Below the pieces are notes generated by a model that did not search any database, had not been told where the DNA came from, and worked only from the letters and a program-made list of their open reading frames with translations. A stretch of DNA of 64,000 nt from NCBI GenBank assembly GCA_035272765.1, contig DATEQG010000028.1, forward strand, positions 14,068 to 78,067, read 5' to 3'. Shown piece after piece: positions 34,922 to 63,600 of the stretch. This DNA is from Candidatus Acidiferrum sp. GTDB taxonomy: Bacteria; Acidobacteriota; Terriglobia; Acidiferrales; UBA7541. Position numbers and translations under genes: made by a program. How positions within the stretch are numbered: the first letter of the stretch is position 1; each line of letters begins with the position of its first letter.

Positions 34922-35653
34922 ATGCGAAAATGTGCAGTTCTTGTGGCAGGACTATCCCTGTTCAGCGCTGGTTGTCACTTCAAGACCAAGGATTTACTGA
35001 ATGCTTTCGATGCAAGAAAGGCCGCAGCGATAACCGTGACGGTGGCTCCCGTCGGTGCCAGCCTGCCTATACACGGCACGCAACAGTTCACCACAATCGT
35101 GACAGGCACCTCTAACACTCAAGTCACCTGGAGTCTCGGGGGCACTCCCTGCGCAGGTGGACAGGATTGCGGTTCGATCAGCGCGAATGGTTTCTACATC
35201 GCTCCAGGAGGCATATCCAACCCCAATCCAATTACCGTCACAGCTTCCGCGGAGGCCGATGCGCTTGCTCAAGGCGTAGCGCAAGTGACGATCTACCCTG
35301 CGGTCGAGGCGCAGGAAATCTTGAGGGGCAGCTACAGTTTTCTGGTGACCGGCGCTGACTCCGAGGGCAAGTTGTCAGTCGCGGGTAAGTTTATAGCCGA
35401 TGAGGCTGGGCAATTGCATAGCGGGGAGATGAGTCTCTGCCGAGGTCAGGCTTCCTGCGTGGAGTCGGCGTTCGAAGGCACGTACACCTCGAGCGCCAAA
35501 AACCAGGGAACCTTTTGGGCGGACGCACTGTCCGAAGCGGAATTCCACTTTGCTCTCACCGAAAGTGGGGTGGTGAAGCTCCAACTGGACGACGCGAAGG
35601 GATTGCACGCCGCCGGGATCCTGGAAGCCGCCAAGGACACCGTTAACGAATGA
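34922..35653 (+). CDS. Lipoprotein with Ig-like (Big_2-like) domain
   Basis: GGAGAGG RBS; MRKCAVLVAGLSLFSAGC lipobox; TQQFTTIVTGTSNTQVTWS...GSISANGFYIAP. Confidence 0.8.
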   Translation: MRKCAVLVAGLSLFSAGCHFKTKDLLNAFDARKAAAITVTVAPVGASLPIHGTQQFTTIVTGTSNTQVTWSLGGTPCAGGQDCGSISANGFYIAPGGISNPNPITVTASAEADALAQGVAQVTIYPAVEAQEILRGSYSFLVTGADSEGKLSVAGKFIADEAGQLHSGEMSLCRGQASCVESAFEGTYTSSAKNQGTFWADALSEAEFHFALTESGVVKLQLDDAKGLHAAGILEAAKDTVNE

Positions 35654-44559: not shown

Positions 44560-44919
44560 CTAATGAACGGCGGACGCTTCGTCTCCCTGCTTCGACAGCT
44601 CACTGAACTCCAATCCCCAAAACCGCGGGGCCGGCGTCAGAAACTCCACGCCGATCCTCTGCCCTCTCTCGCAGGGCTCTCCCTGATACACGACGCGGCA
44701 CTCCTGCTCCTCCAAAGTTTCCGGGTTCGTCAAAACGAGCATCTCCCCGTTATCAATCTCGTGCTTCATCATCAGCAAACCGCCGTGCGCGTTCACCACC
44801 ACGGTCTCGCACGACTCTTTGAACTTTTTTCCGTTGTGCGCGCGGCCTTGCGCCTGCAACCGCATCTTGTGAAACGCCCGCCCGCTGCGCCGGTGTGTTG
44901 GAGAGGTTGTTCCATTCAT
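44560..44919 (-). CDS. Stand-alone PilZ-like domain protein
   Basis: RRSGR (RxxxR), VVNAHGG (D/NxSxxG-like), CRVVY, IGVEF. Confidence 0.7.
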   Translation of the reverse strand: MNGTTSPTHRRSGRAFHKMRLQAQGRAHNGKKFKESCETVVVNAHGGLLMMKHEIDNGEMLVLTNPETLEEQECRVVYQGEPCERGQRIGVEFLTPAPRFWGLEFSELSKQGDEASAVH

Positions 44920-45295
44920 ACCGCCATCATCGAACGCTTCCGCAAACACCGTAAACTGGCCCTCGGGACAGGTGTTCCCCACAAGCAACCGGCCGAGGCG
45001 CTGGGGCATTCCACAATCCGGCTCCGCGGCAAGTTCATCCCAGCGGAGAACTCCCCAGAACGGTCCTTGAACGAATCCGCCGGCATTCAAAATCAGATTC
45101 CCGATGAATTGCATTTTTCGTGTATTTAGTCTGTCGAGCAAACGTAGTTTTTTGCCACCGCGCGGCAAGGACCGACATGTGTAAGGCGAATGTTCATTCA
45201 CCTGCCCCTGCGTACCATTGACGGCAGCCCCATGCCCCGATAGTTTTTGGATCACCCAAAAAATCCCTCCAACTTCGCGCCCACGGGGGCAATCC

Positions 45296-48028
45296 ATGTC
45301 TCGATCATTGATTCGGTTGATACTCTACGTTACCGCGCTCATCTGTCTTTTTGCCTTGGCATCGCCCAGTGGATTCGCCCAAACGGCCCCAACCCTGACT
45401 GTTGACGCCGCCGGAAATCCACATCCAATCAATCCCGACATTTACGGCATCGCTAGCTACAGCCTGGACTCCGGTTTTGCGAAAGAAATTCAGGTTCCCA
45501 ATGTCCGCTGGGGCGGCGACGCAACAACTCGTTACAACTGGCAAGTCGATTCCAGCAACGCAGGCTTCGATTGGTATTTCATGGGTGGCAACGGACAAGC
45601 GACCCCGGTCCCAAGCGCTTCCGCCGATCTGATGGTCAACACTTACAAGTCGGCATCGAACGCCCACGCCTTGCTCACCATTCCAATCATCCCCTATGTG
45701 AATAAAACGGCCGCGTGGAATTGCAGTTTTCCTGTCTCCGTATATGGCCCGCAGCAATCCACCAATCCCTACGTTCACCCCAATGGCGACAGCTGCGGCA
45801 ACAGTCTCACAACGAGTGGGGCCCAGCTAATCGACAACAATATTTATGCCAACCATATCGATAACACCGTCGCGTTGCAGCAAGGTTGGGTGCAACATTT
45901 CATTGCAACGTTCGGCACCGCCGCAAACGGCGGCGTTCCTTACTACCAACTGGATAATGAGCCAGGAGGCTGGAGCAACACGCACCGTGACGTAGAACCC
46001 AATCAGCCGAACTACGACACGATCATTGCCCTCGGCCAGCAATACGCCGCAATGGTCAAACAAACAGATTCTTCCGCGAAAGTTTTAGGTCCCGTGGATT
46101 TCACGCTCGGCGGATGGATCGGAACTCCCAACCAACAGAACAATCTTTACGCGGGTCAATATTATTTGCAGCAGATGGCCGCCTACGACCAGACCAATCA
46201 TCAACGCATTCTGGATTACTTCGACGAACACTATTATGGAGGCGGCTCGACGGACGCCGCGGAACTTGCCTCCACCCGTGCGCTTTGGGATCCCACATTT
46301 AATTCGGGAAGCTGGGTCGAACAATACTATTTCGATGGACCGATGATGCTTCTCCCCCGCTTTCAAAATTGGATTCAGACCTACTATCCAGGAACGAAAC
46401 TCTCGATTTCCGAGTACAGCTTCAGCAGCGGAACCAATCCGCTAGTGGATGCGCTCACGGAGGCGGATGTGCTCGGCATTTACGGGCGCGAGGGCCTGGA
46501 TTTCGCGAATTTGTGGAGTGTGCCTCAACCGACCGATGCTGTCGCGTACAGTTTCCGTGTGTATCGGAACTATGACGGCGCGGGCGGACAATTTGGAGAC
46601 AGCTCAGTAACCTCGACAAGCACCGATCAAGGCCAGCTTTCTGTTTACGGCGCAATGCGCTCAAGCGACGGCGCCCTCACCGTCATCGCCATCAACAAGA
46701 CCACAAGCCTGATTCAAACAAGCCTGAGCCTCGCCAATTTTAATTCGGCAGCCACGGCCAATCCCTACACCTACAGCAACGCCAACATGACGCAAATTGT
46801 TGCCGGGGCCGCCGTTCCCGTTGTGTCCAATACCGTGAACTACAATTTTCCGGCGTATTCTGCAACGGTCTTTGTGTTTACGGCTGCAACCTCTTCGACC
46901 GCTGCGACAACCACTTCCCTCGTCACATCATCCGCCAGCATCACTTTGGGGCAGAGTGTCGCGTTTACCGCAACAGTTACTCCTGCATCGGGAACGAGTA
47001 CTCCCACTGGCACCGTGACCTTCAACGACGGCGCGGCACAAATAGGCACAGGCACTCTGAACTCTTCCGGATCAGCAACATTCAGTACGTCTGGACTCGC
47101 TGTTGGCTCTCATTCCGTGACCGCGGTTTATTCAGGTGACTCGAATTTTTCAACCTCCACTTCGGCCGCAGTATCGGTCACCGTTTCAGCTCCGGCTAAA
47201 ACCGCAACTACCACTTCTCTTACTGCCTCCGCGACACAACTGTCGACCGGGCAAAGCGTCACCTTCACTGCGTCGGCCGCGGCGCAATCAGGATCCGGTA
47301 CACCGACTGGCTCTGTCATCTTTCTGGATGGGCAATCCCAGATTGGCGCGTCGCTGCTTAGCGCGGGCTCTTCCTCACTCACCAGTACTGGTCTCTCGGC
47401 AGGAACTCATTCCATCACTGCGGCTTATTCTGGCGACGCGAACTATGCTGGATCTACCTCTGCTCCCGTCTCGATCACTGTGGCAGCGGCGCCGGCGCCC
47501 GACTACTCGTTATCTATCAGCAGCTCGTCGCTCACAGTTGCGCAGGGAGCTTCCGGCAAGCTGACTATCACCGTGACTCCGAAAAATGGATTTACGCAGG
47601 TCCTTGGTCTTGCGTGCTCGGGTTTGCCCGCTGGCGGAACTTGCGCCTTTAGCCCACAAACTGTAAATCCCGCGGCTGGCGCTGTTTCAGCAGCTCTCAC
47701 TGTCCAAGCGCCCGCCACCCAAAACGCAATTCTGCTGATCGAACCATTCTTCGCTTCCGGTAATGCAGCCTTATACATTCTTGCCATGCTGCTCATGGGA
47801 ATCGCCGGAACTTCGGTAAACAAGTGGTGGGTTAGAGGAAACGTCCGATTAGCTCAGCCAATTCTGGCATCCATTATCTTCGCCGCATTGTTGGCAACCG
47901 CAGGTTGCGCGGGTCTCGCCTCTCCCCAAAACCAACCCCAGTCGACTTCTTACGCAGTCACCGTTACGGCCTCAGCCGTGAACGCACCGACACACACCCA
48001 GCAGTTTACTTTCTATGTGAGACCTTAA
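45296..48028 (+). CDS. Secreted GH44 endoglucanase/xyloglucanase with Ig-like (Big_3) repeats and a C-terminal membrane anchor
   Basis: Signal peptide; RWGGDATTRYNW, LDNEPG, DEHYY, ISEY, YRNYDG; two TTTSL...PTG.V.F.DG...G.HS.TA.YSGD repeats. Confidence 0.9.
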   Translation: MSRSLIRLILYVTALICLFALASPSGFAQTAPTLTVDAAGNPHPINPDIYGIASYSLDSGFAKEIQVPNVRWGGDATTRYNWQVDSSNAGFDWYFMGGNGQATPVPSASADLMVNTYKSASNAHALLTIPIIPYVNKTAAWNCSFPVSVYGPQQSTNPYVHPNGDSCGNSLTTSGAQLIDNNIYANHIDNTVALQQGWVQHFIATFGTAANGGVPYYQLDNEPGGWSNTHRDVEPNQPNYDTIIALGQQYAAMVKQTDSSAKVLGPVDFTLGGWIGTPNQQNNLYAGQYYLQQMAAYDQTNHQRILDYFDEHYYGGGSTDAAELASTRALWDPTFNSGSWVEQYYFDGPMMLLPRFQNWIQTYYPGTKLSISEYSFSSGTNPLVDALTEADVLGIYGREGLDFANLWSVPQPTDAVAYSFRVYRNYDGAGGQFGDSSVTSTSTDQGQLSVYGAMRSSDGALTVIAINKTTSLIQTSLSLANFNSAATANPYTYSNANMTQIVAGAAVPVVSNTVNYNFPAYSATVFVFTAATSSTAATTTSLVTSSASITLGQSVAFTATVTPASGTSTPTGTVTFNDGAAQIGTGTLNSSGSATFSTSGLAVGSHSVTAVYSGDSNFSTSTSAAVSVTVSAPAKTATTTSLTASATQLSTGQSVTFTASAAAQSGSGTPTGSVIFLDGQSQIGASLLSAGSSSLTSTGLSAGTHSITAAYSGDANYAGSTSAPVSITVAAAPAPDYSLSISSSSLTVAQGASGKLTITVTPKNGFTQVLGLACSGLPAGGTCAFSPQTVNPAAGAVSAALTVQAPATQNAILLIEPFFASGNAALYILAMLLMGIAGTSVNKWWVRGNVRLAQPILASIIFAALLATAGCAGLASPQNQPQSTSYAVTVTASAVNAPTHTQQFTFYVRP

Positions 48029-60680: not shown

Positions 60681-63600
60681 CTATTTGGCTACTATTACGT
60701 TCACGGCGACATTGGCGTTGAAAGCGCCGGCGACGACGTTGAGGTTTACGACAGCGGGGCCGAGCGGAGTCAGACCTGCGCTCGAGCTGCCACCGCTGTT
60801 ACAGCCAGCAATGCTAGCCAGCAGAAAAGCAAGGATCAGCGCCGCGGAGTAAACCAAACTACGGCGGCCACTGGTGTGGCGCGCAAGCAAGAACGCCGTC
60901 AGTATTGCCAGAAGCGTTGCAAGCACGAGAAAGACTGGCGGCCAAGCTCCGGGGCCGCGGCGTGGTGGAAGAATCGGCGATGAAGCAGTGCCATTGCCGG
61001 CATCGGAGGTAATCATCTTAACGCTTACCGTGTAAATCCCTGGCTCGTTCGCAACGGGGGTGATTGTCACATTGCATACGGCAAACGGGAGACATTCGAG
61101 GACGTGAACAGCAAGCGGAACGTTAGCGAGATTGAGATTGCCGGCAAGACAGACGGTAAACGTTGCGGTAACCGAAGCTTTTTGTTGGACGGTCACAGGA
61201 GCAATGGCGCCGCCGCACGGCACAACACCCTCGACAACTTGTTCGGCGAGCGCGCTCGAAGTGCTGGAGAGAAAGGCATTCGCGTTTGAGGTGTATGCCG
61301 CCGTCAGCGAGGTCTCTCCCCCTTGTGGGAACGTCGCGATCGTCACTGAGCATGAGCCAGTGTCTGTGCCGACAGTCAGAGGCGTCGGGGAGGGAGCGCA
61401 AGCGTCGCCGAGCCCACCGTCGGTGACAACGACGGAGCCCGTTGGGATGGCGTTGCCCGATACCGGTTTGACCGTGAAGTTCACCGTGACCGGGTTTCCC
61501 ACCAACGCGACGCTCGAAGGTAAAGTCTGGCCATGGAAACTGGAACTGGTCGTAAAGGTTGTAGTCGTGCCCACTGGCGGAGCAGAATTCACAGTCAGCG
61601 ACGCAGGTGCGCTGCCCATACAGTTGTTCGCGTCGGTTGCGGCAACGGTGAGCGTGACAGTCGTTCCCCCAGCGTCCAGGGGAGGCGTACCAGAGAGCAA
61701 CCCGGTAGAGTTCATGCTCAACCACGTCGGCGCGGAGCTGACAGTCCATGTATATGGGCCGGTTCCATTGTTCGCTGAAAACTGTTCCGAATAGAGAACT
61801 CCGGCTGTCGCGTTGGGAGTCAAAGCGCCGGAAGGCGTGACCGTGATCGCCGGGCACGTTGGTGCCTGCGCTTCGTAGACGAAGACCGCTCCCGCGTTTG
61901 AATTGGATTGGAGATAGGAGATGAAGACAGTGTTGGCATTGCCGCTCAAGAGGCCAGAGAGGGCCGTCGCCTCCGACGCGCCAGATTGCGTGAACGTGTT
62001 GGTAGTCGCCGTATAGATAGGTCCGCTCGGCCAGGGCGGCGGGGTGCCTGCCGCCACGCCAAACTGGTAAACTGCGTTACTAACGGATCCCACCAAAATT
62101 ACGTTCCCGGCATCGCTAATTGATAGTTGTTCTCCAAATAATGCGTCTTGCAGAAGAACCGCTGCGGGTTCCAGACGCGTAGTTTCATTGAGTGGATTTA
62201 CACCTGCGGCCCAGCCATCCGTGGGAATGACGAATACGTAGGCCTCGCCATACTCCTCTTCATCATTCTGGTAAGGAGCTCCAATGACGACGGTATCCCC
62301 TGCGTCGTCGACGGCAGCAGCCAATCCAAACCCACTGCTGCCATTAACATCCGAATTCAGCAGATCGACGGTCTCCGTCAACGTTGGCGGCGGCGTGGCC
62401 GGATAACCTGGATTCAAGCTGCTCCAACCCTTAGAGTCCTCTTGAAACACGTACGCCTCGCCGCTGCCTCCATTTGCGCCGAACGCCCCAACAGCGACGA
62501 CCTGGTTGGACTTATTGGCACTGTTCTCGCTAATGGCCAACCCAACTCCAAAGTTATCGAAGCTCCCCGGTTGAAGGGGTTGCAGTTCTACGTTTTCGGT
62601 GAGCGTCCCCGCTCCTGCCCAACCGCCAGCCGGCTTAAGGTACATATTTACGTAGGCGTACGGCGTGCCCGTGGGAAATTCGCGGGCGACGATCGTGGAA
62701 CCATGGTAATCGATGGCAAGAGAGGTTGCGAAATAGCCTCCCTCAGACGCGCCGCTGGGCGTGAGCACGGCCACCGCCGTTAGACTCTGATTCGCTGTCG
62801 CCCAGGCGCTCTCGGCCGTAGCCGTAAATACATAGGCCTCGCCGAAGCATTCCACAAACCCGGTAGATTCAGTCTGGCAAGAGTGTTGGGGTGCGGAGAC
62901 AACTATCGTTTTTCCGTCCCCGCTAATAGCCACCGCAGTGCCGAACTGGTCCCCGATTGTTCCCTGTGCGGCGTCGGGAGCAGTCAGCGTCACTATCGGC
63001 GCCGTCACGCCAGCCCAACTGCCAGGAGTCGGTGTGGAGAAAACATAGGCTGCTCCATTCGTGGTCACGCTGCACGAGCCAGTACTGGGATCTGAGCCAC
63101 ACGCAGAAGCAACGACGACCGTACCGTCGTCGCTGACCGCCGTAGCAGTGCCGAGGAAACTATTGGCTGGCGCACCGCTCAGCTGGGCTACTTCGCTGTA
63201 GGTGGGATCGATGGTCACAGGAAACTTGGCCCCCTCAGCATCTACACGAACACGCATGGTCTGGTCTGGCGCCTCGATCCAGGAATTCAGCTCGCGGCCG
63301 GATGCGTCGTGTACGGTTAGGCCTGCGTAACGCAGCGCTGGACGACCGCTGTCGTCCAGCAAGGTCAGGGCATGGCTGTGCGAACCCTCGAGGTTCTTCC
63401 AATTTCCCTTGAGCGCAAACTCCAACGTGAGCAAGTGTTGAGTGGTGTTTTCGTTCCAAGGCGCCTTCGCGACGAGGAAGCTTTGTTCGAGCCCCAGTGG
63501 GCCGTTGACATAAGACTCGGTGAGATTCTCGCGGTCGTATTCGATGCGGTTGGCGATGGCGTGAGGCGAAACGTTGGCTGACATCTGAATTTTCTGGTCG

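Follow-up and report, generated by a model that had tools for sequence, protein, structure and literature searches.

A divergent homolog of the putative lipo-invert anchoring tail in a GH44 glycoside hydrolase of Candidatus Acidiferrum: an immunoglobulin-like domain split by a hairpin with a lipoprotein-type cysteine

The stretch analyzed here, referred to as the window, comprises 64,000 nucleotides of contig DATEQG010000028.1 from Candidatus Acidiferrum sp. (Terriglobia) and carries a gene for a 910-amino-acid GH44 glycoside hydrolase. By profile matching and structure prediction, the last domain of this protein is a known immunoglobulin (Ig)-like repeat with an insert of helix, basic loop, helix and Cys in the loop that precedes its last two strands. 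This split domain starts at D736 (codon at 47501), and its C-terminal region is referred to as the tail. The motifs DNEP (residue 220) and ISEY (residue 371) presumably contain the GH44 catalytic residues. The following features were identified in the gene.

45296..48028, + strand: GH44 glycoside hydrolase gene (client protein P0001), 910 amino acids; open reading frame (ORF) and domain scan
45296..45379, + strand: N-terminal signal peptide, residues 1-28, read from the sequence; probable Sec/signal peptidase (SPase) I substrate
45389..46882, + strand: GH44 catalytic region, residues 32-529; NF041873 match below cut-off, PF12891 at residues 87-314 (E value, 6e-51, in the domain scan of the 910-amino-acid protein)
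46922..47482, + strand: two Big_3_5 Ig-like stalk domains; PF16640 in two stretches, the best at residues 543-631, the end of the second approximate
47501..47719, + strand: strands one to five of the split Ig domain (residues 736-808), including the Cys774/Cys783 pair; repeat hidden Markov model (HMM) positions 1-70, predicted local distance difference test (pLDDT) 97-98
47720..47764, + strand: variable linker, residues 809-823; least conserved segment (0.49), low pLDDT
47765..47821, + strand: hydrophobic helix 1, residues 824-842, predicted stop-transfer segment; model and hydropathy of the tail set
47822..47848, + strand: basic loop KWWVRGNVR, residues 843-851, predicted cytoplasmic; loop charge across tails
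47852..47905, + strand: helix 2 and lipobox-like end LLATAG, residues 853-870; model and signal profile
47906..47908, + strand: invariant Cys871 (TGC), predicted lipidation site; 112/112 and 134/134 tails
47909..47944, + strand: polar tether after the Cys, residues 872-883; Gly/Ser/Pro-rich across the family
47945..48025, + strand: last two strands, residues 884-893 and 900-909, predicted to complete the Ig domain; HMM positions 72-94, model alignment and conservation

To describe the repeat in its uninterrupted form, an HMM of 97 positions was built from 792 full uninterrupted copies found in the 150 listed of 14,806 proteins matched in the library. Residues 736 to 808 of the GH44 protein matched positions 1 to 70 of this HMM with 64.9 bits, and residues 882 to 905 matched positions 72 to 94. 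Both parts tiled the HMM in 59 of 61 family tails, a set comprising 57 of 60 fetched loci (three with another architecture were dropped) and four tails from the same genome. Among 74 tail-type proteins, 41 also carried uninterrupted copies of the same repeat. The split copy ended ≤4 residues from the C terminus in 71 of the 74, and each protein had one split domain, which was always the last; one of them, P0127, consisted of two tandem repeats and was dropped after this count. In an AlphaFold2 model of the tail built on the 61 sequences, strands were predicted over residues 736 to 804, helices at 824 to 846 and 853 to 868, and further strands at 884 to 893 and 900 to 909, with pLDDT values of 96 to 98 in both strand regions. 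Using VIA, 96 model residues (range 2 to 176) aligned to the 99-residue Ig linker of a Micromonospora sialidase (2BER; Z score, 12.6; 2.0 Å). An alignment of this length is beyond what the first 75 residues could provide by themselves. Foldseek alone gave only weak Ig matches, and matches in the ESM Atlas were limited to unnamed Acidobacteriota clusters and Ig families. Among GH44 orthologs, conservation was 0.85 for the last strands (residues 884 to 909, the most conserved segment after the Cys), 0.79 for the first strands, 0.50 for the loop and 0.49 for the linker. Thus, a complete beta-sandwich of the sialidase-linker type is predicted to form from two separated parts. The anatomy of a split Ig fold had been proposed in a preliminary description of this DNA, and the HMM tiling, the model and the VIA alignment all bear it out; the packing of the tail into the Ig sheet, also proposed there, is predicted in the model of the intact chain. 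The idea that the Cys774/Cys783 pair specifically braces split domains was considered and rejected. The pair is present in 89% of split copies, but tail-bearing proteins also have it in 91 of their 125 uninterrupted copies, compared with 72 of 667 elsewhere, so it tracks lineage.

Scanning of the protein families identified the GH44 tail as a match to NCBIfam NF058595 (invert_tail), covering model positions 2 to 112 of 113 with an E value of 2.4e-7. This model was issued in NCBIfam release 20.0 (June 2026) under the name 'lipo-invert putative C-terminal anchoring domain-containing protein'. The score of 31.1 bits (32.8 in a second scan) does not reach the curated cut-off of 37, and the NCBI pipeline would therefore not give the GH44 protein the lipo-invert name. 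A profile made from 51 NF058595 matches of other genomes gave the GH44 tail 105.5 bits (E value, 2.4e-30). The family and the GH44 tail share a C-terminal position (in the GH44 protein behind a signal-like N terminus), the hairpin with its basic loop, the Cys and the final strands. By these matches, the GH44 tail is a divergent homolog of the lipo-invert family, for which an anchoring function is putative. NF058595 starts at about residue 797, leaving the first four strands outside it, and was compared by model name and scores. The preliminary description had presented the system as undescribed, a claim that does not hold given the NCBIfam entry. The neighboring models NF058594 and NF058596 were considered as relatives and found to be unrelated. 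In the same genome, NF058595 matched six places at E values of <1e-5, three of them above the cut-off, and the 51-match profile added one paralog, C91; a regular-expression (regex) screen of the genome returned 14 matches, of which four were real tails, and missed the GH44 tail. One of the paralogs lies in the window.

60690..60989, - strand: second, divergent lipo-invert tail, in an FG-GAP protein; NF058595 33.5 bits, below cut-off

The FG-GAP protein has 1114 amino acids, its gene running from 60681 to just past 64000 on the - strand, and its Ig halves are more divergent than those of the GH44 protein.

Cys871 was confirmed at codon 47906 to 47908 with exactly 39 residues after it, as first described. 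The Cys was kept in 112/112 aligned GH44 ortholog tails (the best 120 of 256 matches, less eight with another architecture), in 61/61 family tails and in 134/134 pooled diverse tails. At position -1, Gly, Ala or Ser was found in 133 of the 134 diverse tails compared with 171 of 322 control cysteines that follow hydrophobic stretches. A basic n-region and an uncharged h-region both precede the Cys in the GH44 tail, and family tails have an uncharged helix of 11 to 21 residues between the basic residues and the Cys. When scored with a matrix built from 22 regex-picked N-terminal lipoprotein-like signals of the same genome, the tails had a median of 7.7, compared with 5.9 for the N-terminal signals themselves (leave-one-out) and 0.8 for the control cysteines, and 85 of 134 tails exceeded the 90th percentile of the controls (6.4). 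The net charge of the basic loop was +2 to +7 in 134/134 tails, and the 15 residues preceding helix 1 had a median charge of +1. Helix 1 had a median hydropathy of 2.2 in its best 15-mer and a median uncharged run of 20 residues. These values support a positive-inside hairpin and a signal-peptide-like profile. An invariant Cys shared by many secreted proteins that are unrelated to one another, named in the preliminary description as a sign to look for, was likewise observed, and the lipobox FSAGC near 34922, cited there for comparison, is present. The profile is less marked in the GH44 copy itself, which scored 2.7.

As in a Sec/SPII signal processed by Lgt and LspA, the tails combine basic residues, an uncharged helix, a small residue at -1, a Cys and a Gly/Ser tether. 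However, Cys871 of 910 is not N-terminal and so does not occupy the classical Sec/SPII position; some 850 residues and a stop-transfer helix come before the signal, and the product here would be a peptide of about 30 to 55 residues rather than the protein itself. Judged by its residue pattern, the internal segment that follows the stop-transfer helix may work in the way a lipoprotein signal does. Asp directly after the Cys was found in 0/134 tails; inner-membrane retention by such an Asp is an Escherichia coli rule and may not apply here. Apparent N-terminal lipoproteins encoded elsewhere in the genome (G000:C86:34371-37727 and C10:22592-26221) carry this Ig repeat in uninterrupted form, and the tether of the C86 protein (Cys, Gly-rich stretch, Pro) is the same as that of the tails. 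A C86-like N-terminal lipoprotein is a possible source of the tail insert.

The additional paralog, C91 (L075:4935-9248; G000:C91:56934-61247), is a pro-kumamolisin protease in which an entire Ig domain separates the Cys from the last two strands; it is missed by NF058595. Including C91, this long-tether form was represented by eight matches, seven of them further ones, in 6 of 81 genomes in all. Seven sequences were aligned (an unpublished row, G384, was excluded); in these, 128 to 139 residues including a complete Ig domain follow the Cys, which is kept in 7/7. A model of the long-tether form (pLDDT, 75) showed one domain made of residues ~1 to 77 together with the C terminus, 97 residues of which aligned to residues 594 to 700 of 8JMW (Z score, 9.8), and the insert (about residues 162 to 257) matched as one domain of its own. 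Because the model range 1 to 280 aligns to single Ig domains over 92 to 99 residues, it is predicted that the last strands bypass the insert and rejoin the split domain. Of the evidence added here, this model gives the best support for the prediction that the last strands complete the split domain.

Tail matches were present in 24 of 201 genomes sampled across the phylum: within the class, each of the 17 genomes other than this one matched, compared with 6 of 183 outside it, and two of the outside matches on inspection were uninterrupted Ig repeats (one from the unpublished genome G145). In a sample of the class, four families were positive throughout (21/21, 1/1, 21/21 and 22/22; 65/65 genomes), with up to 25 matches per genome, whereas the other nine families gave 12/85, mostly single weak matches. 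These tallies include the unpublished G145, G262, G275 and G282 and do not depend on them, and related genomes are not independent, so that no statistical claim is made from the distribution. The clients are unrelated and include GH44, pro-kumamolisin proteases, subtilases and FG-GAP, TIG, ASH-type and lactonase-like proteins, as identified in part by a scan of 23 hand-picked library proteins. Signal-like N termini were seen in 23 of 38 long Met-starting library proteins, many of the others looking like fragments. A protein of ~210 amino acids encoded at L074:2930-3574 on the - strand (G031:C88) consists of a signal-like N terminus and a split domain only, with no cargo. One candidate for a free-standing tail gene, L072, was rejected, as it appears to be a remnant that lacks a signal helix.

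We propose, with a probability of about 50%, a two-cut lipo-invert mechanism in which the hairpin and the lipoprotein-type Cys would give the enzyme a C-terminal lipid anchor in the form of a fold-completing lipopeptide. The protein would be exported through its N-terminal signal peptide. Helix 1 would stop transfer, the basic loop would lie in the cytoplasm and helix 2 would recross the membrane, placing both Ig halves outside, a topology suggested by the charge pattern. The last two strands, homologous to those of the repeat, are predicted to pack into the first five. Ordinary Lgt would put diacylglycerol on Cys871, and LspA would cut before the Cys to give a 40-residue lipopeptide, as the signal profile suggests. 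An intramembrane protease, plausibly a general rhomboid, would then cut at helix 1, so that the enzyme would hang only on the lipopeptide and could move to the outer membrane or the surface. We infer lipid tagging, LspA cleavage and the second cut from sequence patterns. Excision of the hairpin requires a second protease, because LspA alone cuts only before the Cys; the second cut would fall in the linker (residues 809 to 823) or at the start of helix 1. The end that LspA would leave, a helix followed by a basic cluster, is shaped like the segment of GlyGly-CTERM proteins that is cleaved by rhomboids. The second cut is the weakest step of the mechanism, and its odds fall a little short of even.

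The genome carries two Lgt genes, one LspA gene (beside an apparent ileS), two LolA-like genes, three rhomboids and five CPBP proteins. A dedicated Lgt was rejected, since tail-bearing and other genomes of the 201-genome sample alike have one to four copies. Two of the three rhomboids were rejected as the tail protease, as they occur in 121 and 93 of 151 genomes and are common in tail-poor families, and so was one of the five CPBP proteins, which was found in 25 of 81 genomes, including 8/11 in a tail-poor family and 0/10 in a tail-rich one; these distributions come from single-protein queries, by which distant orthologs can be missed. These distributions, together with the lack of a match above the myxosortase and rhombosortase cut-offs and of a recognizable processing gene beside seven tail genes, favor housekeeping Lgt and LspA. 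One Lgt (L067:1495-2892; G000:C96) is fused to an extra C-terminal domain, which we take to resemble a class I methyltransferase.

Several observations weigh against the two-cut mechanism. In the GH44 copy, the residues before Cys871 are T-A-G, so that the strict lipobox pattern [LVI][ASTVI][GAS]C under which the site had initially been reported is not matched; across the family it fits 24/61 tails, and a relaxed pattern fits 43/61. The lipobox of the GH44 copy is weaker than in the rest of the family. Its signal-matrix score lies below the controls' 90th percentile, as do those of 49 of the 134 tails. Asn occupies position -1 in 51 of 112 GH44 orthologs (P0002-P0117), which is unusual for a lipobox. 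Spirochete lipoboxes tolerate Asn at this position, and the orthologs offer a natural test of LspA tolerance. The invariance of the Cys in the pooled tail sets is to be read in the light of the profiles with which they were gathered, which themselves include the Cys. Alone, the match of residues 882 to 905 is weak (3.5 bits), and the models depict the uncut chain and do not show cut pieces staying together. The long-tether model rests on seven sequences with a predicted template-modeling score (pTM) of 0.56, and the last 32 residues fell at the expected F-G HMM positions in 3 of these 7 only. As for processing, no conserved cleavage motif was seen before helix 1 across the 134 tails, and the proteases compared (two of the three rhomboids and one of the five CPBP proteins, site-2 proteases not included) do not track the tail. 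In this genome, which is 76% complete, no Lnt was found over the cut-off, and the Pfam-matched stretches of the three rhomboids scored 29 to 37 bits against the rhombosortase cut-off of 84 (TIGR03902).

The alternative that best survives is that Lgt and LspA act and no second cut follows. Helix 1 or the hairpin would then keep the enzyme in the inner membrane on its periplasmic side, and the lipopeptide would only close the fold as a second anchor. Helix 1 is by the above measures a full hydrophobic segment, and the lack of a motif before it and of a tracking protease among the three tested points the same way. However, a retained hairpin would make the lipid superfluous even though the Cys is invariant, and polymer-cutting and adhesin-like clients would fit the surface better; we regard this outcome as unlikely. 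It is decidedly unlikely that the hairpin serves simply to hold the protein in the membrane by two helices in an Ig loop, the Cys perhaps acylated but the chain left uncut. The weak lipobox of the GH44 copy, the Asn in its orthologs and the good folding of the intact chain in AlphaFold would suit such an anchor, but the small residue at -1 in all but one of the diverse tails would not, nor would the Gly-rich tether, which resembles that of the genome's N-terminal lipoproteins (e.g., C86:34371).

A dedicated, lineage-specific sorting enzyme of the myxosortase, exosortase or rhombosortase kind, possibly with covalent transfer, could act in place of LspA, and is less probable still. The sharp distribution (65/65 compared with 12/85) is as for other sorting signals, and helix 1 with its basic cluster resembles a CTERM signal. 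In GlyGly-CTERM proteins, the substrates of rhombosortase, a helix with Gly/Pro is likewise joined to a basic cluster; here a second helix, the Cys and the strands follow. No cut-off of the families scanned, including myxosortase and rhombosortase, was reached by the three rhomboids or by four CPBP proteins, Lgt copy number does not follow the tail, and no processing gene was recognizable next to seven tail genes, the neighbors of which were read by eye. MYXO-CTERM signals, as described in PMC11980579, are also C-terminal, multicopy and lineage-wide and have an Arg cluster and an invariant Cys that is predicted to be lipidated. There, however, the Cys stands before the only helix and remains part of the client, whereas in the lipo-invert tails it comes after the second helix, the arrangement of an SPase II signal, and would lie on a separate C-terminal piece; the order of Cys motif, one helix and terminal Arg cluster is replaced by helix, basic loop, helix, Cys and strands.

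In the type V pilins of Porphyromonas, a beta-sandwich protein is, once proteolysis has taken place, kept at the membrane through strand pairing with a short lipidated piece (PMC13655056). Two C-terminal strands complete a fold there, as proposed here, but their anchor strand is N-terminal and displaced in polymerization, the fold is another one and there is no internal hairpin. That the lipopeptide strands complete a domain of another molecule, with clients exchanging anchors or joining into chains in the manner of these pili, is very improbable. Type V pili do use lipoprotein anchor strands and two-strand exchange (PMC13655056), and the split domain stands alone behind a signal peptide in L074, but with one split domain per protein, always last, there is no chain geometry, and the models close in cis. 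No paper on the lipo-invert tail or its mechanism was found in a library that has few subscription papers, the matches returned being judged by title and opening of the abstract to concern other systems, and supplementary sorting-signal tables could still mention the tail; a term search of bioRxiv 10.1101/2023.06.07.544157 found no mention of it. The lipo-invert family is already catalogued, and no tested mechanism for it was found in the literature searched.

A gene for a TonB-dependent-type outer-membrane barrel (PF25183; 48212-51778, - strand) is convergent with the GH44 gene and does not form an operon with it, and a small ORF without a Pfam or NCBIfam match (44560-45297, - strand), presumably PilZ-type by resemblance, is divergent from it. 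A scan for promoters and terminators gave results at chance level.

If the two-cut mechanism is true, the lipoprotein pathway can act in midchain and anchor a protein by fold completion instead of a covalent bond. The tail would be a portable C-terminal lipid anchor with a tether able to carry whole extra domains, and a possible tool for C-terminal protein anchoring. The GH44 copy offers an assayable enzyme as a reporter; with its weak lipobox it is not the best first test case. More tentatively, and at odds that we would place rather below even, Terriglobia may anchor many large exported proteins by means of housekeeping Lgt and LspA and a second protease, each client being held only by a noncovalently bound two-strand lipopeptide. 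The mechanism would represent a new logic of surface display in an abundant soil lineage.

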